From an uncultured bacterium (GTDB taxonomy: Bacteria; Patescibacteriota; Minisyncoccia; UBA6257; 2-01-FULL-56-20): a stretch of DNA of 64,000 nt. Location of the stretch: positions 238,363 through 302,362 of the forward strand of contig OY970354.1 of assembly GCA_963718515.1 (NCBI GenBank), in the 5' to 3' direction. Of this stretch, positions 13,995-28,881 are shown in pieces (position 1 is the first letter of the stretch; each line of letters starts with the position of its first letter). A model generated the notes under the pieces. It was given only the letters and a program-made list of their open reading frames with translations. It made no database searches and had not been told where the DNA came from. The translations under genes were made by a program, and so were the position numbers.

Positions 13995-14801
13995 ATGAAA
14001 AAAGATTTGCCCCCATCAGAATCGGAGCCGGTGCTCGCAGAACAAACCGTAATCGTTAGCGAGGGCTCCTCTCGTAAGCGCGATCTCTTTTTGCCGATCA
14101 GCATCCTTGCGGCGGCCATCATGGTGGGCGGGGCGATCGTATTCGCGACGTTGTATCGGGGTGGAGCAACACCCGGAACGGGAACGACGCCGGGCGTCGG
14201 TACGACAGGCAATCCTAGCGCCGCTTCCACGACGGCAAATGGTTCCGTGATGACGCTCGGCCCGCGCGATGCGATCCTCGGCAATGCCAACGCTCCCGTG
14301 ACGCTCATCGAGTATGGCGACTATCAGTGTCCGTTCTGTGGCGAGTTCTTTAGCCAGACCGAGCCATCGATCATCCAAAATTATGTGAACGCGGGCAAGG
14401 TCCGGTTCGTCTTCAGGAACTTCGCATTCCTTGGGCCCGAATCGACCGCCGCCGCGGAAGCCGCCGATTGCGCGGAGGATCAGAACAGGTTGTGGGCGTA
14501 TCACGACGCGCTCTATAGCGCTAAGGTCGCCGATGATGCCGGTGGCGGCCAGGAAGACGACGGATTCTTCAGTGCCGCAGAAGTTTTAAAGCTTGGCCAG
14601 CAAGTGGGACTCAATATGACGACCTTCACGAGTTGTGTTCAAAATAACACCGATGCCAACCTCGTTGCCCAAGAAAAAGGTGATGCGGCGAACTTTGGCG
14701 TTAATTCCACGCCCACGTTCTTTATAAACGGCGCCATGATCACCGGTGCCCAGCCGTATTCTGTCTTCCAGCAGGCCTTGGATAGCGCGTTGCAGGGATA
14801 G
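13995..14801 (+). CDS. DsbA-family thiol:disulfide oxidoreductase, membrane anchored
   Basis: N-terminal TM segment and a YGDYQCPFCGEFF CxxC thioredoxin-fold motif. Confidence 0.8.
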   Translation: MKKDLPPSESEPVLAEQTVIVSEGSSRKRDLFLPISILAAAIMVGGAIVFATLYRGGATPGTGTTPGVGTTGNPSAASTTANGSVMTLGPRDAILGNANAPVTLIEYGDYQCPFCGEFFSQTEPSIIQNYVNAGKVRFVFRNFAFLGPESTAAAEAADCAEDQNRLWAYHDALYSAKVADDAGGGQEDDGFFSAAEVLKLGQQVGLNMTTFTSCVQNNTDANLVAQEKGDAANFGVNSTPTFFINGAMITGAQPYSVFQQALDSALQG

Positions 14802-15374: not shown

Positions 15375-16304
15375 ATGTACGATCTCATTATCATCGGCGG
15401 TGGGCCGGGCGGCGTTGCCGCCGGCATTTATGCCGCTCGCAAAAAAATGAAGACAGCGTTGATCACCGACACGTTCGGTGGGCAGTCTTTGGTTTCCGCC
15501 GGGATCGAGAACTGGATCGGTACGAAGTCCATCTCCGGTTTTGATCTTGCGAAGGCGCTCGAAGAACATCTTCGCGCACAGCAGGGGATCGATATTATGG
15601 ACGGCGATCTCGTGACGGCCATTGCCAAGCGTGATGACGGCACGTTTTCCATTTCCACAAAGAATGGCAAAACGCTCGACGCAAAATATATCCTGCTCGC
15701 GTCCGGTAGCCGCCGCAAACGGCTCGGCGTTCCGGGCGAGGACCAGTTCGACGGCAAAGGCGTCGTGTTTTGCACCACCTGCGACGCGCCGCTCTTTGGC
15801 GGCAAGGTCACCGCGGTCGTGGGCGGTGGTAATTCCGCGCTCGAAGGCGTGATGGATCTTTTACAGTATGCTTCAAAGATCTATTTGATCGTGCGTTCCG
15901 AAGTCTTGCGCGGCGACCCGGTCACCCAGGAAAAGATCAAGAGCCATCCGAACGTGGAGATACTTTGGAACACGGTCATTGAGGAGATCCACGGCTCTCC
16001 CGAGACCCATTTTGTGAACGGCATCAAATATAAGGATGTCAAAACGAACGAGCCAAAAGAGCTTCCTCTCGACGGCGTTTTTGTGGAGATCGGCCTTGTG
16101 CCCAACTCCGATTTCGTGAAGGACTTGGTCACGCTCGATCCGTTCGGCCACGTGGTTGTGGACCATAAGACCCAGGAGACATCGTGCCCCGGCATCTGGG
16201 CCGCTGGCGACGTGAGCGATGTTTTGTACGACCAGAACAACATCTCGGTAGGCGACTCCATCAAGGCGGTGCTGAACGTCTATGACAAGATTAAAAAAAG
16301 TTAA
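15375..16304 (+). CDS. trxB: thioredoxin-disulfide reductase
   Basis: YDLIIIGGGPGGVAAGIYAAR (FAD site), CTTCDAPLF redox-active CxxC, VVGGGNSALE (NADPH site) and GIWAAGDV. Confidence 0.8.
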   Translation: MYDLIIIGGGPGGVAAGIYAARKKMKTALITDTFGGQSLVSAGIENWIGTKSISGFDLAKALEEHLRAQQGIDIMDGDLVTAIAKRDDGTFSISTKNGKTLDAKYILLASGSRRKRLGVPGEDQFDGKGVVFCTTCDAPLFGGKVTAVVGGGNSALEGVMDLLQYASKIYLIVRSEVLRGDPVTQEKIKSHPNVEILWNTVIEEIHGSPETHFVNGIKYKDVKTNEPKELPLDGVFVEIGLVPNSDFVKDLVTLDPFGHVVVDHKTQETSCPGIWAAGDVSDVLYDQNNISVGDSIKAVLNVYDKIKKS

Positions 16305-16658: not shown

Positions 16659-18635
<1,977 letters not shown>

Positions 18636-18970: not shown

Positions 18971-20584
18971 ATGGAAAATCCCTACGTAAAAAAGACCGAT
19001 AACGGCATTGTAATTACCCCGGAAGGCGAGGTACTTTTGCAAAAAGTGGTGACCGATTCAAAAGGCCCGGTGTACGCGTTTACGGGCGAGGCGTCGCCGC
19101 TTTTGGCCGCCGCGGCGATGGCGCGGCTTTCGCGCCGCGGGAGCGACCTGCGCGAAATATATCTCGACGAGTTCGCCGCAGTGGGCGAAGATGGCGCCGC
19201 GGCGCTCATAGATCGCGTGGTCACGGGCTACGGTGACGACTCCGTCCAACAGCTCATCACTGTGCTCACGGTGGTGGAGAGCGCATCGAACTTGCTCACG
19301 AAAAAGATCGAGTGGAGCCGGCTCGCCTCGTACCTTGAGCAATCGACGCGATATATTTTTTATGATACAAAAGACGCGGCAGGCAACTATAAATATTTTA
19401 CGCCGCGCAATCTGACGCCCACGCTCAGTGCCTCATATAAGGCATCGCTGGATCACGTCTTCGATCTTTACTCCGAGATCGCGCGCGGACTCACGGAATA
19501 TGTGCGCAAACAAAATCCGGAACCGGCGGACAAGGCCGAACGTGTAGCATGGCTTGGCGCGACGCGCGCGCAGGCGTGCGATGCCGCCCGGCCCGTGCTC
19601 CCCGTCGCCACAAAGTCCACCGTCGGCATCGTGTGCTCATCGCAGGCAATGGAATCCATGGTGCGCCGCCTGCTTGCCGATCCTTTGCAAGAATCGAACG
19701 ACACGGGCAAAAGCTTACTCGCCGAATCGCGCAAAGTGATCGGGGCATTTTTGAAGCGTGCGGATCTGCCGGAGCGCGGCCTCGCGTGGGTGGTTTATCT
19801 CCAGGAGACGAAAAAGAAGATGAAAGAGCTCGTGGCGAAATATATCCCCGGCGAGAGCAGGGATTTCGGCAGGGAAGTGACCCTGCAGTGGGCGTTTCCG
19901 GGAGATGAATTGGATCTCGTACCCGGAATGCTTTTTGAGAATAGTGAACTTTCCGAGGCGGAAATAAAGGCGGCGGTCGCAAAGATGTCGACGGCACAAA
20001 AGGAGGAAGTGTTCATGGGATACATGGGCGATCGGAAGAACCGTCGCCACAAGCCGGGTCGTGCGCTTGAGGAAGCTCACTATAAATGGGAACTCGTCGC
20101 CGATTACGGCACGTTCCGCGATTTGCAAAGACACCGCATGGTGGACGATTGGGAGTGGCAAAACCTGACGACCAAATATGGCTACGACGTGCCGGCGCTT
20201 GTCGCGGAAGCGGGATTTGAAAAACAGTTCCGTGAATGCTTTGCGGTTGCGGAGGAGCTTTTCGCACAAATGCACGCCGCCGGTTTTGCGGAAGAGGCGC
20301 AGTACGCGACACTCCTCGGCCACAAGTTGCGCTATCACTTTATGATCAACGCGCGGCAGGCGTTCCATTTACTTGAGCTTCGGACATCGCCGCAGGGGCA
20401 CCCGGGCTATCGCAAGATCTGCCAGGAGATGCACCGCCAGCTTTCGAGTGTGCACCCGCGCCTGGGGAAGGCGATGCAGTATCTTAATGTCAACGGTGAT
20501 CCCGCGCTCACGCGCATGGAGGCTGAGCGCGCGACGCAGTTGAAACTCAAGCTATTGGGCGCGGAGGAAGATGGCACCCAATAG
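18971..20584 (+). CDS. long ThyX-like protein (FAD-dependent thymidylate synthase family, about 540-aa form)
   Basis: FRDLQRHRM (ThyX RHR motif) and INARQAFHLLELRTSPQGHPGYRKICQEM (ThyX NxR...LR...Q/H..R helix). It is about twice the canonical ThyX length. Confidence 0.55.
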   Translation: MENPYVKKTDNGIVITPEGEVLLQKVVTDSKGPVYAFTGEASPLLAAAAMARLSRRGSDLREIYLDEFAAVGEDGAAALIDRVVTGYGDDSVQQLITVLTVVESASNLLTKKIEWSRLASYLEQSTRYIFYDTKDAAGNYKYFTPRNLTPTLSASYKASLDHVFDLYSEIARGLTEYVRKQNPEPADKAERVAWLGATRAQACDAARPVLPVATKSTVGIVCSSQAMESMVRRLLADPLQESNDTGKSLLAESRKVIGAFLKRADLPERGLAWVVYLQETKKKMKELVAKYIPGESRDFGREVTLQWAFPGDELDLVPGMLFENSELSEAEIKAAVAKMSTAQKEEVFMGYMGDRKNRRHKPGRALEEAHYKWELVADYGTFRDLQRHRMVDDWEWQNLTTKYGYDVPALVAEAGFEKQFRECFAVAEELFAQMHAAGFAEEAQYATLLGHKLRYHFMINARQAFHLLELRTSPQGHPGYRKICQEMHRQLSSVHPRLGKAMQYLNVNGDPALTRMEAERATQLKLKLLGAEEDGTQ

Positions 20585-21168: not shown

Positions 21169-22077
21169 ATGGCAGCAAATCTCTACACACTTCAATCGTC
21201 GAATATCCGGCGCACGTGGATGCTGTTCATCGTGTTCTTCATTGTGATCGGCGCGCTTGGATATTTTATCTCGGTGTATTATGGTGATCCGGATATTCTT
21301 ATTTTCGCGCTGATCTTTTGCGTTGTGTATTCGCTCATCAGTTATTATTCTTCGGCAAGGATCGCGCTTTCGCTTGCGCGGGCCAAGCCGATCGAGAAGG
21401 CCGACAATCCGATGCTCTATAACCTAGTGGAAAATCTGACGATCACCGCGGGCCTGCCGATGCCAAAGCTTTACATCACGCCGGAGCTTCAGATCAACGC
21501 GTTTGCGACGGGTCGCGATCCCCAGCACGCAGCGGTGGCCGTGACGCAGGGCGCTTTGCAAAGATTAAATAAAGATGAACTGCAGGGCGTGCTCGCGCAC
21601 GAGCTTTCGCACGTGGGCAACCGCGATATTTTGGTCTCGACCGTGGCGGCGATCCTTGCCGGCATCATCGCGCTCATTGCGGATGTTTTCTTGCGCTCGC
21701 TCTTTTTTGGCGGCATGGGCGGCGGCTGCGGACGTGGCAACGGCGAAGCGCAGGAAATATTCTTCATCGCCGCGATCGTGCTTTCGATCCTCGCGCCGAT
21801 CGGCACGATGCTGATCCAGCTCGCGATCTCGCGCCGCCGCGAAGCGCTCGCCGACGCGTCGGGCGTGCTCCTTACGCGCTATCCGGAGGGATTAATCTCC
21901 GCTTTGCAAAAAATTCAGCAGGACGAGACGCCGATGGCCTCGGCCAAGGATTCCACCGCGCACATGTGGCTCGACACGCCGTTCAAGGGCAAGGGCGCTT
22001 CGTGGTGGCACACGCTCTTTGCGACGCATCCGCCGATCGAACAACGCATCGCGGCGCTGGAGAAAATCTCGGTGTAA
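21169..22077 (+). CDS. htpX: M48 zinc metalloprotease HtpX
   Basis: HELSHVGNRD (HExxH), four TM segments and a C-terminal HPP..QRI. The start abuts the lemA stop. Confidence 0.85.
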   Translation: MAANLYTLQSSNIRRTWMLFIVFFIVIGALGYFISVYYGDPDILIFALIFCVVYSLISYYSSARIALSLARAKPIEKADNPMLYNLVENLTITAGLPMPKLYITPELQINAFATGRDPQHAAVAVTQGALQRLNKDELQGVLAHELSHVGNRDILVSTVAAILAGIIALIADVFLRSLFFGGMGGGCGRGNGEAQEIFFIAAIVLSILAPIGTMLIQLAISRRREALADASGVLLTRYPEGLISALQKIQQDETPMASAKDSTAHMWLDTPFKGKGASWWHTLFATHPPIEQRIAALEKISV

Positions 22078-22138
22078 CGTTTTCTTCTCGGATCGGAATT
22101 TTAATAATTATTTAATCTATCTATGCTATGTTCTCGGC

Positions 22139-22867
22139 ATGGCACAGAAAATCTTTAAATTAGGAACAATTGATAGCCGTATAAAAGGAGGCAAGATTTC
22201 ACAACAACGACGACGCGAATACCCTGAAAAATATCGGGCTTTAGGCTGTAAGGTAAAAAAAGTTTTTATACAGCCGGAATATTCAACCGCATTCGCAGAA
22301 TTTATTGGGATTGTGCTTGGGGATGGAGCTATTAGTAACTATCAAGTGAGGATAACATTAGATCGATATCGCGACCGGGAATACGCCAATTTTGTAAAAA
22401 ATCTTACGGAAATCGTCTTGGGTGAGACTCCGTCTGTGGCAATTTATGAATACGATAATACAATCTCGTTAACCCTCTCGGGGATCGGTCTAGTAGAGAT
22501 GCTTGAAAGAGTGGGAATGACAAGGGGAGATAAAATCGCTCACCAGGTTTCCTTCCCTAAATGGATAAGAGATGATTTAAGCTACCGCATTGCATGCGTG
22601 CGAGGTCTTTTTGATACGGACGGTGGGTTATATTTTCACCAAAAAGCCGAGAAAAAATATTTGGGATGGTGTTTTTCAAGCAAGTCAGAACCATTACTTG
22701 TCGATGTATATGACGCATTGCGAAATTTGGAATTTAATGTTAAAAAAGCAGGAGGGTATAAACTCTGTATGTATCGCCTTAGCAGTATCGAGCGATACTT
22801 ATCGTTAATAGGATCAAGTAATCCCAAAAACGATGCGAGGATGAGATTTTATAAAGCTCAAAAATGA
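22139..22867 (+). CDS. free-standing LAGLIDADG-family homing endonuclease-like protein
   Basis: ATG at 22139. Two LAGLIDADG-type motifs are present: FIGIVLGDGAI and VRGLFDTDGGLY. The gene is clearly AT-richer than its flanks. Confidence 0.7.
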   Translation: MAQKIFKLGTIDSRIKGGKISQQRRREYPEKYRALGCKVKKVFIQPEYSTAFAEFIGIVLGDGAISNYQVRITLDRYRDREYANFVKNLTEIVLGETPSVAIYEYDNTISLTLSGIGLVEMLERVGMTRGDKIAHQVSFPKWIRDDLSYRIACVRGLFDTDGGLYFHQKAEKKYLGWCFSSKSEPLLVDVYDALRNLEFNVKKAGGYKLCMYRLSSIERYLSLIGSSNPKNDARMRFYKAQK

Positions 22868-24337: not shown

Positions 24338-24859
24338 ATGGACAAAATCGCATTACGGGAGCGGATTCCTGAATCTGTGCTACCGCACCCAAAAGGAGTT
24401 TATAACCGGTCGAAGTATGCCTTCTGGAAAATGATCTACCCTCTCCATAACGCCGGGAGGGATGTCCTTTTGTCCGCCGGACTCATCCACCACCCCTATC
24501 CAAGTGGCAGGCAAGACTTCATGCTCGGAATGCTTGCACCGGATAAGTCGGTAGAGGCGTTCGTGAAACATTTAGGGGAACAAGGATTTTTTAATCACTT
24601 TATTGCCTGGAAAGATTCCGGCGAGATAGTCAGCGTGCGGCGTGCGGTGGATTTTGAATGGCAATACCACCTCCGCCTATTTGCCGATGGAGAGGTGCGT
24701 GGACATTACGAGTACACGCCGGAAAGTCATCCGATATGGCACTACTACGAAATCCGGCAGGAAGAGCGCCGACACCAGTTTTTGGAGTTTTTGGGAGATT
24801 GGATTGTGCCCGCTGCAGCTTCAGTGCACACGTCCACTTCTGCTCTCAATAAAAATTAA
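24338..24859 (+). CDS. hypothetical protein
   Basis: 173-aa ORF with no motif I recognise. Its 3' end overlaps the convergent ATP-grasp gene by 39 nt. Confidence 0.45.
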   Translation: MDKIALRERIPESVLPHPKGVYNRSKYAFWKMIYPLHNAGRDVLLSAGLIHHPYPSGRQDFMLGMLAPDKSVEAFVKHLGEQGFFNHFIAWKDSGEIVSVRRAVDFEWQYHLRLFADGEVRGHYEYTPESHPIWHYYEIRQEERRHQFLEFLGDWIVPAAASVHTSTSALNKN

Positions 24860-26080
24860 ATCCCACACGTCGCCCGCCGCATTGCGCGCCGGGCCTTTTA
24901 ATGGAAAATGATGCAGGTCGATGAATGGCAGGCTGTTGCACTCGATCACGCCGCACTTTTGCTCTTTCCACGAGCGCGCCATATCGTCCATCATGAAGTC
25001 GACGCCGACGAGCGGATCGTCGAGCACGTTTGCGATGTGTAAAAATAATCTTTCATTGTCCGGGTGGATATCCGTGATCTCCGTCGTCGATGCGCCGTAC
25101 GCACGGCTCACCTTTGGATGGATGATGACCATGCGGTCTTTTTCCGGCACGGAATCGAGCGAAAGGTTTTGATCTTTGAGGATCGCGATCGTTTCTTCGC
25201 CGAGCGGGAGTTCGTGGAATATCGGTCCGTGCCGCAGTGGATTATTATTTTCCTCCACGATGAGCTCGTGCACGGTGCGCGTGCCGTCGCCCGTTACGTG
25301 CGGCGGTTCGCGGCGCATGACGCCCGCGATGCGCCCCCCCACGAGCGTGATGCGGAAGACGAATCCCGAAAGCTCTTCTTCTACGACGACGCGCGGGGAA
25401 AGTTGCTTTGCTTTATAAAATGCGTGGCGAAGTGCGGCGACGTCCGTGATATTTACATATGTGTGGCGGCTTCGTGAACCGATCGCCGGTTTTATAATGG
25501 CGGCGTCGGTGTCGTCGCCCACGATTGCGCGGAATACTTTTTCCGCGTCCTTGAACGTGCTCACGCTCCTGCCGCGTGGAACGGGGACGCCCGCCGCACG
25601 GAATTTTTTGAGGATGACGCCTTTGTCGTCCATCCAGTCGAGCGAGGATTCGTGCGCGGCGCGCGGGCGGGGGAGTCCGTCGAAGCCGCGCGTGTCGCCG
25701 CGGTAACTTGCGTAAAATATCTCACGGGCGAGGCCGAAAGGTCGGAACTCGCGCATTACGATGCCGCGGCGCTCGGCCTCTTCCCAGAGCACCCGGGCGC
25801 GCCAATTGTTTTTTTCGTCGGCGTGCGCGACGATCTCACCCAAGCCGAGCGCCGCGAGCGTGCGCGCCGCCGCCGGCGCCAGCCGCCCTGGCCGCGTCCA
25901 CGCAACGACGGGCTTTATTCCCTGCCACACGATTGCCGGTGGCTTTTGCATATAGCCCAACAGCGCATCCGCGCGAACCGACCATCGCTCCACGAAGTGC
26001 GATACGCCCGCCGGACCGCAGTCCGGACAGTATGCGCGTGTGCTTGCGTTGGTGTGCCCACTTGCATGAGTGTCTGCCAT
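24821..26080 (-). CDS. ATP-grasp domain ligase (RimK / cyanophycin-synthetase-like)
   Basis: KKFRAAGVPVPRG..., AIIKPAIGSRSRHTYV, VVVEEELSGFVFRITLVGGR and IECNSLPFIDLH match an ATP-grasp core. The exact start is uncertain. Confidence 0.6.
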   Translation of the reverse strand: MADTHASGHTNASTRAYCPDCGPAGVSHFVERWSVRADALLGYMQKPPAIVWQGIKPVVAWTRPGRLAPAAARTLAALGLGEIVAHADEKNNWRARVLWEEAERRGIVMREFRPFGLAREIFYASYRGDTRGFDGLPRPRAAHESSLDWMDDKGVILKKFRAAGVPVPRGRSVSTFKDAEKVFRAIVGDDTDAAIIKPAIGSRSRHTYVNITDVAALRHAFYKAKQLSPRVVVEEELSGFVFRITLVGGRIAGVMRREPPHVTGDGTRTVHELIVEENNNPLRHGPIFHELPLGEETIAILKDQNLSLDSVPEKDRMVIIHPKVSRAYGASTTEITDIHPDNERLFLHIANVLDDPLVGVDFMMDDMARSWKEQKCGVIECNSLPFIDLHHFPLKGPARNAAGDVWDLIFIESRSGRVH

Positions 26081-26114: not shown

Positions 26115-27629
26115 CTATGCGAACCCTGGGAAGAAGTCGGTTTTGATCTGCGAGCGCGCCACGCCCATCCCGCGGAGCGTTTTTTTGAATGCGTTCGTCA
26201 TCACGTGCGTGCCGGAAATATAGAACACGCGTTCTTTGTAATCGGGCATTTCTTTTTGGATCATTGCGCTGTCGATTCTGCTGTTCACGCCATCGTCTGC
26301 GCCGGTCGTCACATAAAGCGTTTTCAATCCGATCTTTCGCGCCGCCTCATCGAATATTCCGCGATAAGCGACTTCTTCCGGCGTGCGATTGGAATAGAAG
26401 AGCATCGCATCGCGCCGTTCGCCGCGGTCAACAAGATCTTTCACCATACTGCGGAATGGCGTGATGCCGATGCCGCCCGCGATGAATGCCAGCTTGCGCC
26501 GCGCGTCTTTTGGTAGAGTAAAGTCGCCCGCGAGTTGTCCTGCAATGATTGTCTCGCCGGGTTTGAGCGCAAGGAGCGCGCTTTTAAAACTGCTCGATGG
26601 TTCGTAGAACCGCACGCCAAGATGGACATCGTCTTCGGTGGGTGACGATGCTATCGTAAAGTAGCGCCGGTTTCCGCGCCCGTCGGTTTTTGCATGGCCG
26701 AGCGTCCACTCAAGATATTGCCCCGGCCGGAATGATAATTTTTTGTCGGTGGCATTATTGTATTGGAATGTGAAATCGTATATGCCCGCACCGACCTCTT
26801 TCTTCTCTTTCAACCTCAATATCTTTTTCCCCTTCGGACTCACCGCATACGAGAAAATATTCCCCACGAGCAGTGCGAGCTCCGGGGACGAATAAATAGA
26901 GCCGACGTGGATCGCGGGGGCGTAGAGAATGCCGACGAGCGCGCCGTATGCGATGCGCCGCGATCGCGTGGGAGGCGTGGTGAGCGGTTCGGTGATCATG
27001 ATTGAGGCAAAGAAGAGGACTGGCGTGTGCAAAAATATCTTTTGGATGGTCGCAAGCGCCGCGGTGTCCGGATGGGTGACGATGCAACTTGCCATCGCAA
27101 AGGCGAGGAAGCTGAGCGCCAGATCAAAGCGCTGAATCTTCCGGAGCACGAGAATGCCGCCGATCACGACGAACGCCATGAGCGGCAGGTTGCCGCCGAC
27201 CCACCAGCTCGCCGTCTGGTTGAACGAGAGCGCGGTCACCGCCACGGCGAACGCCGCCGGGTTGAAGATATGCTTCTTGTCTATCGTAAAGATATATTTC
27301 GACGCCATCGCGAGCACCGCGGCCCACGCGAGGAAGCTCAGCGTTGCCACGTCCGTCGGCATGCCTGGCGTGATGATGAGCGCGAGGATGAGCGCCGTGA
27401 TATAGACCGATTCAACGTTGGGCTGTGCCTTGAAGAGATGGGCGAGGACGCCGTTTGCAACCCATGCGACGATGACCAAAAAGAGTGTGGAAAAAATAAT
27501 GGCGATGGGATTGTAGGGAAGGACGCCGATCGCGCCGAACACGGCCGCGATCGCGAGCAGAATGATCAGGTAATACATCACGAGGCGATACATCGTGATC
27601 TTATTCAGAAAGCGGTCAATTAGATTCAT
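26115..27629 (-). CDS. membrane oxidoreductase: N-terminal RnfD/NqrB-like polytopic domain fused to a ferredoxin-NADP reductase-like FAD/NAD(P) domain
   Basis: The N-terminal ~270 aa are polytopic and contain KHIFNPAAFAV. The C-terminal region has RRYFTIASSP (RxYS-type FAD site) and AGGIGITPFRSM (NAD(P) site). Confidence 0.7.
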   Translation of the reverse strand: MNLIDRFLNKITMYRLVMYYLIILLAIAAVFGAIGVLPYNPIAIIFSTLFLVIVAWVANGVLAHLFKAQPNVESVYITALILALIITPGMPTDVATLSFLAWAAVLAMASKYIFTIDKKHIFNPAAFAVAVTALSFNQTASWWVGGNLPLMAFVVIGGILVLRKIQRFDLALSFLAFAMASCIVTHPDTAALATIQKIFLHTPVLFFASIMITEPLTTPPTRSRRIAYGALVGILYAPAIHVGSIYSSPELALLVGNIFSYAVSPKGKKILRLKEKKEVGAGIYDFTFQYNNATDKKLSFRPGQYLEWTLGHAKTDGRGNRRYFTIASSPTEDDVHLGVRFYEPSSSFKSALLALKPGETIIAGQLAGDFTLPKDARRKLAFIAGGIGITPFRSMVKDLVDRGERRDAMLFYSNRTPEEVAYRGIFDEAARKIGLKTLYVTTGADDGVNSRIDSAMIQKEMPDYKERVFYISGTHVMTNAFKKTLRGMGVARSQIKTDFFPGFA

Positions 27630-27633
27630 GGGG

Positions 27634-28410
27634 TTATTCGCCGTCGGCGGCGTATTTTTTAAACCCGGTCGTCATGGTGGCGATCTTGTTCTTATCTATT
27701 ATATATCCCTCAAAGCCTTCCAGTTTTTCAATAAAATTGATGCCTTCCGCGCCCATTGCGAACGCCGCCGTGGCAAACCGGTCCGCTTCGTAGATATTCG
27801 GCCCGATCACGGTCAGGCTTACGATGCCGTCGACCGGCGCGCCCGCACCGCCATTACCGCGCGGATCGTAAATATGCAGGCCGCGGATATACGTGCCCGA
27901 CGTGGCGACGCCTTCGGTCGTGACGTGCACCACTTTAATATTCTCATTTGGATTGAAAGGATTCTTTATACCCACCGCCCACTTTTTGCCGTCGGCATTA
28001 TGCCCGTGCGGCTGGATGTCGCCGCCGGCATCGACATAAAAATTTTCAAACCCCCTCTTTTGCAAAAGTTGCGCGGCGTTCCAGATCGCCCAGCCCTTCA
28101 CGAGGCCCGATGGATCATATTTTCCGTTTGGCGTTTCAATGTCAAAATAGCCGTTTGTCTCTCGCTTTGTTTCTTCGCTGAGTGCAAAAACGAGTTGCAT
28201 CTCCTCGCTTGCGTTTGCGAGGGCGAGTGAGTCGTCGTTGATAGCCGTTATCTCGCTCGTCGATTTGTATGTGCTGAATGTTTCGTCGATGTGCGTAAAA
28301 TATGCGAAGACCTCGTCAAAGATTTTTGTCGCGGCTTTTTCTGCCGCGTGCGGGTCCTCGATTATCTCGATAGTGATGGGCATACCCATCAGAAATCGTG
28401 TCTGCTTCAT
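27634..28410 (-). CDS. apbE: FAD:protein FMN transferase (ApbE family)
   Basis: FLMGMPITIEI, YDPSGLVKGWA, VDAGGD and ATSGTYIRG motifs. I see no obvious signal peptide or lipobox. Confidence 0.8.
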   Translation of the reverse strand: MKQTRFLMGMPITIEIIEDPHAAEKAATKIFDEVFAYFTHIDETFSTYKSTSEITAINDDSLALANASEEMQLVFALSEETKRETNGYFDIETPNGKYDPSGLVKGWAIWNAAQLLQKRGFENFYVDAGGDIQPHGHNADGKKWAVGIKNPFNPNENIKVVHVTTEGVATSGTYIRGLHIYDPRGNGGAGAPVDGIVSLTVIGPNIYEADRFATAAFAMGAEGINFIEKLEGFEGYIIDKNKIATMTTGFKKYAADGE

Positions 28411-28428
28411 GCGGGACGGGCCTGCAAA

Positions 28429-28881
28429 TTAACTCTTTGCCTGCGAGAGCGCCGAAGCGAGGGATTGCTGGAAGGCTTCGGAGTCTTGCGTGGCTCCCGA
28501 AACGATGTTGACGTTCGCGCTTTGCGCGGTGATCGCTTCCTGCTTGAGCGCTGGCAGGGCCATCGCGCTCACGTCGCTTGAGTGGCCGCCGCTCGGGGCC
28601 TGCGGGAAGGTGACGTTGGTGATGAGCCCGCCCTGGATTGTGACGGTCGCTTGGAGGCTTCCATAGAAGGCGTCCGCCACACTGCCGGTGTAGATACCGT
28701 CTTTATATTGGCCGGTTGGGGTGGTGGTCGTCGCAGGCGGCGGCGTGCCCGGCGTACTTGTTGGAGGCACGGTCGTCGCCACCGACGGCGCGGAACCTTT
28801 ATTGGCAAAAATGACGTATGCGACGACTGCTATCACGAGGATACCCCCAATGACGTATTTGGTAATCGATGATTTGTTCAT
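28429..28881 (-). CDS. FMN-binding domain protein, N-terminally membrane anchored
   Basis: N-terminal TM segment, a Pro/Thr linker, and an FMN_bind domain with VNIVSGATQDS (the flavinylation motif [S/T]GAT). Confidence 0.75.
   Translation of the reverse strand: MNKSSITKYVIGGILVIAVVAYVIFANKGSAPSVATTVPPTSTPGTPPPATTTTPTGQYKDGIYTGSVADAFYGSLQATVTIQGGLITNVTFPQAPSGGHSSDVSAMALPALKQEAITAQSANVNIVSGATQDSEAFQQSLASALSQAKS

Follow-up and report, generated by a model that had tools for sequence, protein, structure and literature searches.

A 64,000-nt stretch of DNA from an uncultured bacterium of the Patescibacteriota (GenBank assembly GCA_963718515.1, contig OY970354.1, positions 238,363 to 302,362; hereafter the window) carries a trio of minus-strand genes that encode, in this order, an FMN_bind protein, an ApbE-family FAD:protein FMN transferase, and a fusion of an NqrB/RnfD-fold membrane domain with a ferredoxin-reductase (FNR)-type domain. 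Their coordinates, taken from the list of open reading frames (ORFs), agree with an earlier, sequence-only reading of the same DNA. We consider it likely that this locus is a copy, in the Patescibacteria or Candidate Phyla Radiation (CPR), of the ‘NQR/RNF-like’ flavinylation-associated electron-transfer system, and that its mechanism may include flavinylation on the cytoplasmic side of the membrane. The architecture itself is already described: an ‘NQR/RNF-like system’ has been defined as a PF03116+PF00175 fusion in an ApbE/FMN_bind gene cluster, and reported mainly from Actinobacteria and CPR (Méheust 2021, eLife, PMC8238504), and the complex of Ktedonobacter racemifer has been modeled with AlphaFold-multimer (Huang 2024, mSystems, PMC11334425). 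The window fusion combines the same PF03116 and PF00175 domains and its fold agrees, while the FMN_bind and ApbE genes sit directly upstream and so within the five genes of the Méheust 2021 definition. The novelty that the sequence-only reading had placed in the architecture and topology of the cluster was therefore not borne out. The main features of the locus are as follows.

28429-28881, minus strand: FMN_bind protein gene, 150 aa, NqrC/RnfG-like
28801..28857, minus strand: N-terminal helix in the FMN_bind protein, a predicted signal anchor, aa 9-27, YVIGGILVIAVVAYVIFAN, Kyte-Doolittle 2.32
28489..28500, minus strand: SGAT motif for flavinylation, aa 128-131, with Thr131 predicted to carry the FMN phosphoester
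27634-28410, minus strand: gene for the ApbE-family FAD:protein FMN transferase, 258 aa, short and leaderless
26115-27629, minus strand: gene for the NqrB/RnfD-fold and FNR-type fusion, 504 aa
26832..27629, minus strand: NqrB/RnfD-fold membrane domain, aa 1-266, ten transmembrane (TM) helices, N-terminus and C-terminus inside
27189..27221, minus strand: outward loop NQTASWWVGGN, aa 137-147, where NqrB/RnfD have a long loop with the flavinylated Thr
26118..26831, minus strand: FAD/NAD(P)H domain of FNR type on the cytoplasmic side, aa 267-504, containing R322-x-F-T-x-x-S328 and G385-G-I-G-I-T-P391
28889..28918, minus strand: promoter-like site TTGGCA-18-TATACT (10/12 matches) just 5′ of the FMN_bind start, a candidate operon promoter

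The tight packing noted previously is confirmed by the ORF coordinates, with 18 nt between the FMN_bind and ApbE genes (TTTGCAGGCCCGTCCCGC) and 4 nt (CCCC) between ApbE and the fusion, and all motifs quoted in the sequence-only reading were found (VSGATQDS, KHIFNPAAF, RRYFTIASSP, GGIGITPFRSM and the ApbE start MKQTRFLMGMP). As regards the promoter-like site, such sites are not more numerous in the region than expected from shuffled sequence, and its position alone is suggestive. Scanning one genome per GTDB species with six peptide patterns from the fusion protein returned relatives in 134 genomes, the best 80 of which (L001-L080) formed our neighborhood set. By phmmer, 79 of these 80 loci contained the fusion, 68 an FMN_bind protein and 62 an ApbE within 6 kb of the fusion gene; under strict clustering the counts were 77, 55 and 52, respectively. 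With ApbE lying within 6 kb of the fusion in 62/80 loci and FMN_bind in 68/80, the adjacency is not due to chance, and the gene-neighborhood check proposed earlier shows strongly conserved linkage. FMN_bind was directly followed by ApbE in 49 loci, mostly at a spacing of −4 to +12 nt, which suggests translational coupling.

These three were the only families to recur together, the next commonest being present in 14/80 loci. No conserved fourth gene, be it an acceptor, a FAD exporter or a Tat component, was found near the cluster among the 80 loci, no further NQR/RNF subunit (NqrD/E, RnfA/E or others) was detected in the window cluster or the 80 loci, and the 64-kb window held no second ApbE or FMN_bind gene. 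A same-strand ATP-grasp gene (24821-26080, minus strand) begins 34 nt downstream of the fusion gene; as its position is kept only in the closest relatives (neighbor in 7/80 loci), we rejected it as an operon member. Its product is similar to cyanophycin synthetase over the C-terminal half of the latter (NCBIfam E = 1.5e-53, well short of the cut-off). Variations on the layout were seen as well. Some CPR loci carry a second FMN_bind paralog near the cluster (L017, 3114-4724, minus strand; L043, 3041-3445; L050, 3587-4006), and in L015, L017, L018 and L056 ApbE is encoded on the opposite strand, 0.5-3 kb away, with FMN_bind remaining fused to the start of the reductase gene.

The sequence-only reading had proposed an RnfD/NqrB-like polytopic domain for the N-terminal part of the fusion. 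This was borne out by a Pfam match of the 504-aa ORF to NQR2_RnfD_RnfE (PF03116; 43.7 bits, cut-off 27.7) and by the predicted fold. An AlphaFold2 model of residues 1-266 alone reached a pLDDT of 81 and a pTM of 0.81, and a model of the whole fusion a pLDDT of 84 and a pTM of 0.77. The top 15 Foldseek matches of the membrane domain in the PDB were exclusively RnfD (TM-score 0.68-0.74) or NqrB (0.54-0.60), followed at ranks 16-27 by Amt, Rh and urea-transporter folds. Across the ten helices of the model, cytoplasmic loops contain 13 Lys/Arg residues and outward loops none, which argues for a cytoplasmic location of both the N-terminus and the FNR domain. A basic segment, SPKGKKILRLKEKKE, directly follows the last TM helix.

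Where NqrB and RnfD carry their covalent FMN, the window fusion has only the 11-residue outward loop. In a profile alignment, Azotobacter vinelandii RnfD (8AHX_D) was covered over chain residues 222-327 and skipped over ~107-221, the covalent-FMN loop. Among 42 sequences, loop residues A140, W142, W143, G145, G146 and N147 were invariant, position 141 was Ser in 33, Thr in six and Asn in three, and none contained a [ST]GA[ST] motif in the loop. The membrane part of the fusion is thus an NqrB/RnfD-like domain that lacks the flavinylated threonine and has lost the FMN-carrying loop. A vestigial flavinylation site at A140-S141 was considered and rejected, given the Asn at position 141 in 3/42 sequences and the absent motif context. 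The published model agrees: the NqrB/RnfD-like subunit has lost its flavinylated threonine, and the NqrC/RnfG-like subunit has its flavin docked where that of NqrB used to be, on the outer face (Huang 2024, PMC11334425). The NQTASWWVGGN loop is a candidate site at which the FMN of the FMN_bind subunit probably docks or stacks.

The C-terminal part of the fusion matched NAD_binding_1 (PF00175; 47.1 bits, cut-off 22). FAD_binding_6 (PF00970) was not called on the window fusion at E ≤ 0.01; the FAD-binding barrel is nonetheless supported, since NCBIfam models of flavohaemoprotein, NqrF and Fre type align over residues 268-500, Foldseek matched complete FNR-type modules such as flavohaemoglobin, the FAD domain of NqrF and the dehydrogenase domain of SpNOX (E down to 5e-16), and PF00970 was called on close homologs. 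Of the five domain calls put forward for checking, FMN_bind, ApbE, NQR2_RnfD_RnfE and NAD_binding_1 exceeded their cut-offs and FAD_binding_6 was not called, and the FAD/NAD(P)H ferredoxin-reductase-like assignment as a whole stands on PF00175 together with the FNR-type fold matches.

The first gene product scored 24.8 bits against FMN_bind (PF04205; gathering cut-off 22) and is built from a short basic N-terminus, a single TM helix, a linker rich in Pro, Thr and Ser, and the FMN_bind domain. Over 85 aa this domain is ~50% identical (E = 8.5e-16) to SaFMN3-D2 of Streptomyces azureus (8P2A), which has been crystallized, is covalently flavinylated with an Em of −184 mV, and belongs to a protein that its authors predicted to be anchored extracellularly. 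The Pfam score and this similarity together uphold the FMN_bind assignment, and the window SGAT aligns with the flavinylated SGAT of 8P2A. The flavinylation motif pointed out earlier (VSGATQDS) is conserved, too: 65 of 71 homologs kept an acceptor motif of the form SGAT (53) or SGAS (12), almost always 17-20 residues from the C-terminus.

The 19-residue hydrophobic helix that follows the basic N-terminus lacks a lipobox and is readable as either a signal peptide or a signal anchor. In the 71 homologs, the net charge averaged +1.87 on the N-terminal and −0.01 on the C-terminal flank of the anchor; the N-flank was the more positive in 63 and the less positive in two. Because the anchors follow the positive-inside rule in 63/71 cases, we predict an N-in/C-out orientation that would place the FMN_bind domain outside the membrane, as had been proposed from the window sequence.

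The second gene product matched the ApbE family (PF02424; 138 bits, above the cut-off). The oddity that had been flagged, an ApbE without signal peptide or lipobox, proved both real and conserved. An N-terminal extension is impossible, as no usable start codon lies between the preceding in-frame stop and the start of the ORF. Moreover, the alignment pairs ApbE residue 3 with residue 24 of Listeria FmnB (chain 7ESA), which places the beginning of the protein at the catalytic core. In all 58 full-length CPR orthologs, taken as the longest possible ORFs, a hydrophobic leader or lipobox was absent, and nearly all start with MK(Q/E)TR(I/L)(I/L)MGMP. A mis-called start or an assembly artifact hiding a signal peptide can thus be rejected. 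So can, as a conserved mechanism, stop-codon readthrough that would tether ApbE to the exported FMN_bind protein: in the window the two genes share a frame at a distance of 18 nt, but across 49 loci their relative frames were distributed 18/17/14.

Despite lacking a leader, this ApbE looks catalytically intact. Residue roles in metal binding, substrate binding and catalysis were taken from the mutagenesis paper on Treponema pallidum Ftp. In 59 CPR sequences, K105, S171, H179, D210 and T214 were each conserved in all 59, R176 in 57 and Y48 in 56, and the window protein possesses the metal-binding Asp and Thr, the catalytic His, Arg and Ser, and the FAD-stacking Tyr of transferases. The isoalloxazine-stacking position (within FSTYK) is a Tyr in 56/59 sequences, as in the FAD-binding transferase state; in Ftp_Tp, the N55Y exchange abolishes pyrophosphatase activity and results in an FAD-binding protein.

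Taken together, these data lead us to propose the following mechanism. NAD(P)H would reduce the FAD of the C-terminal FNR-type domain at the cytoplasmic face, and electrons would cross the membrane via at least one non-covalent flavin site in the 10-TM NqrB/RnfD-fold domain. Outside, they would reach the covalent FMN on Thr131 of the FMN_bind subunit, probably docked at the A-S-W-W-x-G-G-N loop, and pass from this flavin to an external acceptor such as ferric iron, O2 or another soluble oxidant. Reduction of the acceptor would regenerate NAD(P)+ in a bacterium that lacks a respiratory chain. The co-transcribed ApbE would work from the cytoplasmic side and install FMN from FAD either before the FMN_bind protein is exported or while this happens, as might be expected from an enzyme that has no export signal in any ortholog yet keeps its functional residues. 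The analysis shows how the genes are arranged, which domains and predicted fold they encode, that the trio is conserved, which topology the charge bias favors, that the NqrB threonine is lost and that the ApbE residues are intact; inferred are which way the electrons flow, which cofactors lie within the membrane, what the acceptor is and where FMN is attached. The route from NAD(P)H through the membrane to an extracytoplasmic flavoprotein, as suggested in the sequence-only reading, agrees with what has been proposed in the literature for the class and with the topology derived here.

CPR bacteria are considered fermenters that lack electron-transport chains. With a self-contained conduit from NAD(P)H to the outside, they could regenerate NAD(P)+, reduce iron or act on the surface of a host. 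The idea of such a conduit in CPR is already in the literature, and what the present analysis adds is that the lack of a leader in ApbE is conserved, that the system has been under-counted in CPR, and that it is linked to a haem-based counterpart in Actinobacteria.

Several points weigh against the proposed mechanism. The topology is derived from charge bias and hydropathy. Function and direction of electron flow are inferences for the NQR/RNF-like class as a whole, as are the intramembrane cofactors of the fusion, and no recurring terminal acceptor gene is linked to the cluster in the 80 loci. A cytoplasmic ApbE paired with an exported substrate is without precedent, since the leaderless ApbEs on record all act on cytoplasmic substrates, such as the Klebsiella fumarate reductase (review PMC12052999). 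Extracytosolic ApbEs, for their part, need a FAD exporter (PMC9973259). We found no literature that discusses an exported substrate for a leaderless ApbE, or ApbE in CPR, and neither Méheust 2021 nor Huang 2024 discusses a leaderless ApbE. A leaderless, seemingly intact enzyme conflicts with either the picture of an exported ApbE plus FAD exporter or the prediction of an outward-facing substrate; it is the one residual puzzle of the locus, and a testable one.

The main rival explanation would do away with this puzzle by turning the FMN_bind protein around. If its anchor were oriented N-out/C-in, the domain would be flavinylated in the cytoplasm, much like the soluble fumarate reductase of Klebsiella, and the module, rather than exporting electrons, would either face inward as an NAD(P)H-dependent reductase or transport ions driven by redox reactions. 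This would explain an ApbE that is leaderless in 58/58 CPR loci and in actinobacterial analogs, the restriction of characterized leaderless ApbEs to cytoplasmic substrates (PMC12052999), and the lack of a FAD-exporter gene recurring near the cluster, which external ApbEs would require (PMC9973259). Yet the charge bias of the anchor runs the opposite way in 63/71 homologs, the Pro/Thr/Ser-rich linker is typical of envelope proteins, the close homolog SaFMN3 was predicted by its authors to lie outside the cell, and in the published AlphaFold-multimer model the flavin of the NqrC-like subunit sits on the outer face, at the counterpart of the NqrB FMN site and on a loop that the positive-inside rule likewise places outside. 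We therefore regard an inward-facing module as improbable, though it is the strongest of the competing explanations.

Somewhat less probable still is a module that acts mainly as a redox-driven Na+ or H+ pump, a cut-down NQR/RNF in which electron export is secondary; such a function could coexist with the mechanism that we favor. The membrane domain does have the full 10-TM NqrB/RnfD fold, which in NQR and RNF belongs to ion-pumping complexes and which also resembles Amt, Rh and urea channels. However, NqrD/E, RnfA/E and other pump subunits are absent from the window cluster and the 80 loci, and simple one-way electron flow has been argued for this class (Méheust 2021, PMC8238504). Very unlikely, finally, is that the ApbE homolog is a cytoplasmic FAD pyrophosphatase or flavin-trafficking enzyme that feeds FMN to the membrane domain, with FMN_bind left unflavinylated or flavinylated otherwise: the family does include FAD pyrophosphatases such as T. 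pallidum Ftp, and the window protein has no leader, but its stacking position is the Tyr (56/59, FSTYK) whose introduction as N55Y abolishes the pyrophosphatase of Ftp_Tp, the adjacent, translationally coupled gene (gaps of −4 to ~+12 nt) conserves the SGAT/SGAS acceptor, and no second ApbE is encoded in the 64-kb window.

Returning to flavinylation on the cytoplasmic side, a parallel emerged in Actinobacteria. A search seeded with the SaFMN3-D2 sequence led to Streptomyces and Amycolatopsis loci, in which a Ferric_reduct (PF01794)-FAD-NAD fusion is clustered with an FMN_bind protein of 142-148 aa and an ApbE of 245-266 aa. Such clusters correspond to the ‘MsrQ-like system’ of Méheust 2021 (PMC8238504), and their ApbEs are leaderless, too. 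CPR and MsrQ-like ApbEs align co-linearly with 36-38% identity (130-134 bits), as compared to just 60-70 bits, in two pieces, for canonical exported ApbEs against the CPR protein. The FMN_bind proteins, in both groups N-anchored and single-domain, share 40-47% identity, and the FNR domains are related (E = 4e-15). Judging by this similarity of the ApbE, FMN_bind and FNR parts, CPR and Actinobacteria seem to share a single module in which the membrane conduit has been exchanged, with an NqrB-fold flavin domain in the former and a di-haem domain in the latter.

The two groups differ at the N-terminus of the FMN_bind protein. Actinobacterial sequences read MRKSHPVRRAVLAGAATVSGIVLLLSLKPAS here, and an RRxhh motif was present in 53 of 61 full-length actinobacterial proteins vs 2 of 71 from CPR. 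In the Streptomyces and Amycolatopsis MsrQ-like clusters with leaderless ApbE (L081, 4561-7222; L083, 4605-7181) the RR motif of the FMN_bind protein lies in MRKSHPVRRAVLA; in L081, the annotated FMN_bind start lies too far downstream and cuts the motif off. An RR motif is compatible with export of a cytoplasmically flavinylated domain via the twin-arginine translocation (Tat) pathway in Actinobacteria, but high-GC genomes favor Arg over Lys and anchor hydrophobicity is equal in both groups, which makes this evidence weak. Paceibacteria have been reported to encode TatA/TatC. Tat export in CPR was nevertheless not supported, with RR in 2/71 anchors and an anchor hydrophobicity equal to that of the actinobacterial set, and a crude motif scan of the window found nothing resembling TatA/TatC.

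We tentatively raise the possibility that a widespread subfamily of short, leaderless ApbEs, which accompanies NqrB-like reductases in CPR and Ferric_reduct ones in Actinobacteria, works from the cytoplasmic side and flavinylates a membrane-anchored FMN_bind partner that faces outward, either prior to its export or while this is under way. Export might then proceed via Tat in Actinobacteria and by threading of the modified C-terminus through Sec in CPR. If true, covalent flavoproteins outside the cytosol would have a second route of biogenesis, which does without a FAD exporter, and the CPR module would be the haem-free counterpart of an actinobacterial NADPH oxidase (NOX)-like system. As the same ApbE/FMN_bind pair serves a haem-based reductase in Actinobacteria, the puzzle could be tested in genetically tractable Streptomyces.

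With respect to its distribution, the system is far more common in CPR than published. The best 80 loci were essentially all labeled as Patescibacteria or as unclassified metagenome-assembled genomes, apart from one short contig with a Gammaproteobacteria bin label, and the closest relatives of the fusion protein are named Candidatus Paceibacterota or Minisyncoccia. An exhaustive profile search with the membrane domain only returned 2,406 clusters at 50% identity with E ≤ 1e-3, 530 of them with E ≤ 1e-30, and the matches were mostly fusions of ~500 aa. The 134 GTDB species genomes and 530 clusters compare with 127 genomes counted for the NQR/RNF-like system in a survey limited to clusters for which a signal peptide or lipobox was predicted (Méheust 2021, PMC8238504). 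In that survey, flavinylation was found to be ‘strikingly underrepresented’ in CPR, with ApbE/FMN_bind genes lacking a predicted signal peptide having been discarded (PMC8238504). Given that ApbE is leaderless and FMN_bind is signal-anchored in the CPR loci described here, this suggests the under-representation to be in part an artifact of the signal-peptide filter.

Elsewhere in the window, a membrane-anchored DsbA-like thioredoxin and a TrxB-like pyridine-nucleotide disulfide oxidoreductase (13995-14801 and 15375-16304, plus strand), ~12 kb from the cluster, may provide this small genome with a further redox function outside the cytoplasm. GroEL/Cpn60 is encoded by two overlapping ORFs (17158-17991 and 17988-18635, plus strand) that cover PF00118 positions 56-318 and 331-484 and lack the first ~55 profile positions, which could reflect a frameshift, an assembly error or a genuinely disrupted gene. 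GyrB is likewise split, into 32261-33418 (HATPase_c and DNA_gyraseB) and 33544-34428 (Toprim and GyrB_C) on the plus strand, ~125 nt apart and followed by a small opposite-strand ORF (34429-34752). An ORF resembling LAGLIDADG_3 homing endonucleases (22019-22867, plus strand) and an M48 (HtpX-like) peptidase gene (21169-22077) overlap at the 3′ end of the latter; the ORF sits in a local GC dip (0.46 vs ~0.54). Finally, a ThyX (Thy1) domain occupies residues 358-496 of a 537-aa ORF (18971-20584, plus strand), the long N-terminal region of which has no Pfam match.

Among known systems, complete Na+-NQR and RNF are instructive references. The membrane domain of the window fusion has the fold of NqrB/RnfD (TM-score 0.54-0.74), the FMN_bind subunit matches NqrC/RnfG in its N-terminal helix, C-terminal domain and SGAT threonine, and the FNR-type module resembles the FAD/NADH domain of NqrF. 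In contrast to these complexes, the window cluster lacks NqrA/D/E and RnfA/B/C/E as well as a 2Fe-2S domain, the covalent-FMN loop of NqrB/RnfD is shortened to 11 residues, the NqrB-like domain carries the NAD(P)H module as a direct fusion, and neither a quinone nor a ferredoxin partner is evident at the locus. With three recurring genes in 80 loci and no covalent-FMN Thr of the NqrB/RnfD kind, a genuine six-subunit Na+-NQR or RNF could be rejected. The same holds for flavin-based extracellular electron transfer as in Listeria: the PplA model reached 16.7 bits (cut-off 325), a lipobox is missing, and no Ndh2 or ECF-like neighbors recur among the 80 loci.

The cytoplasmic ApbE of Klebsiella pneumoniae also lacks a signal peptide (PMC12052999), but its substrate is a soluble, cytoplasmic NADH:fumarate reductase, whereas that of the window enzyme is membrane-anchored and predicted to face outward. 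Since the linked FMN_bind protein has an N-in/C-out charge bias and the window encodes no other FMN_bind protein, the locus was not assigned to this type. NADPH oxidases (SpNOX, 8QQ7) likewise combine a cytoplasmic FAD/NAD(P)H dehydrogenase, whose fold matches that of the window protein, with a TM conduit in one polypeptide. They differ in using two haems to reduce O2 directly, in place of a haem-free NqrB fold that would hand electrons to a covalent flavoprotein.

Similarly, the actinobacterial MsrQ-like system shares the three-part logic of the window locus, but it has a six-helix di-haem ferric-reductase domain for a conduit instead of an NqrB-like flavin domain, a different gene order, and an RR motif at the FMN_bind N-terminus; the absence of PF01794 from the window cluster and the NqrB/RnfD fold of its membrane domain argue against membership in that system. 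The NQR/RNF-like system, by comparison, corresponds to the window locus in the fusion gene next to apbE and FMN_bind, the occurrence in CPR, the absent NqrB Thr and the proposal of one-way electron flow, and shows no essential difference from it.

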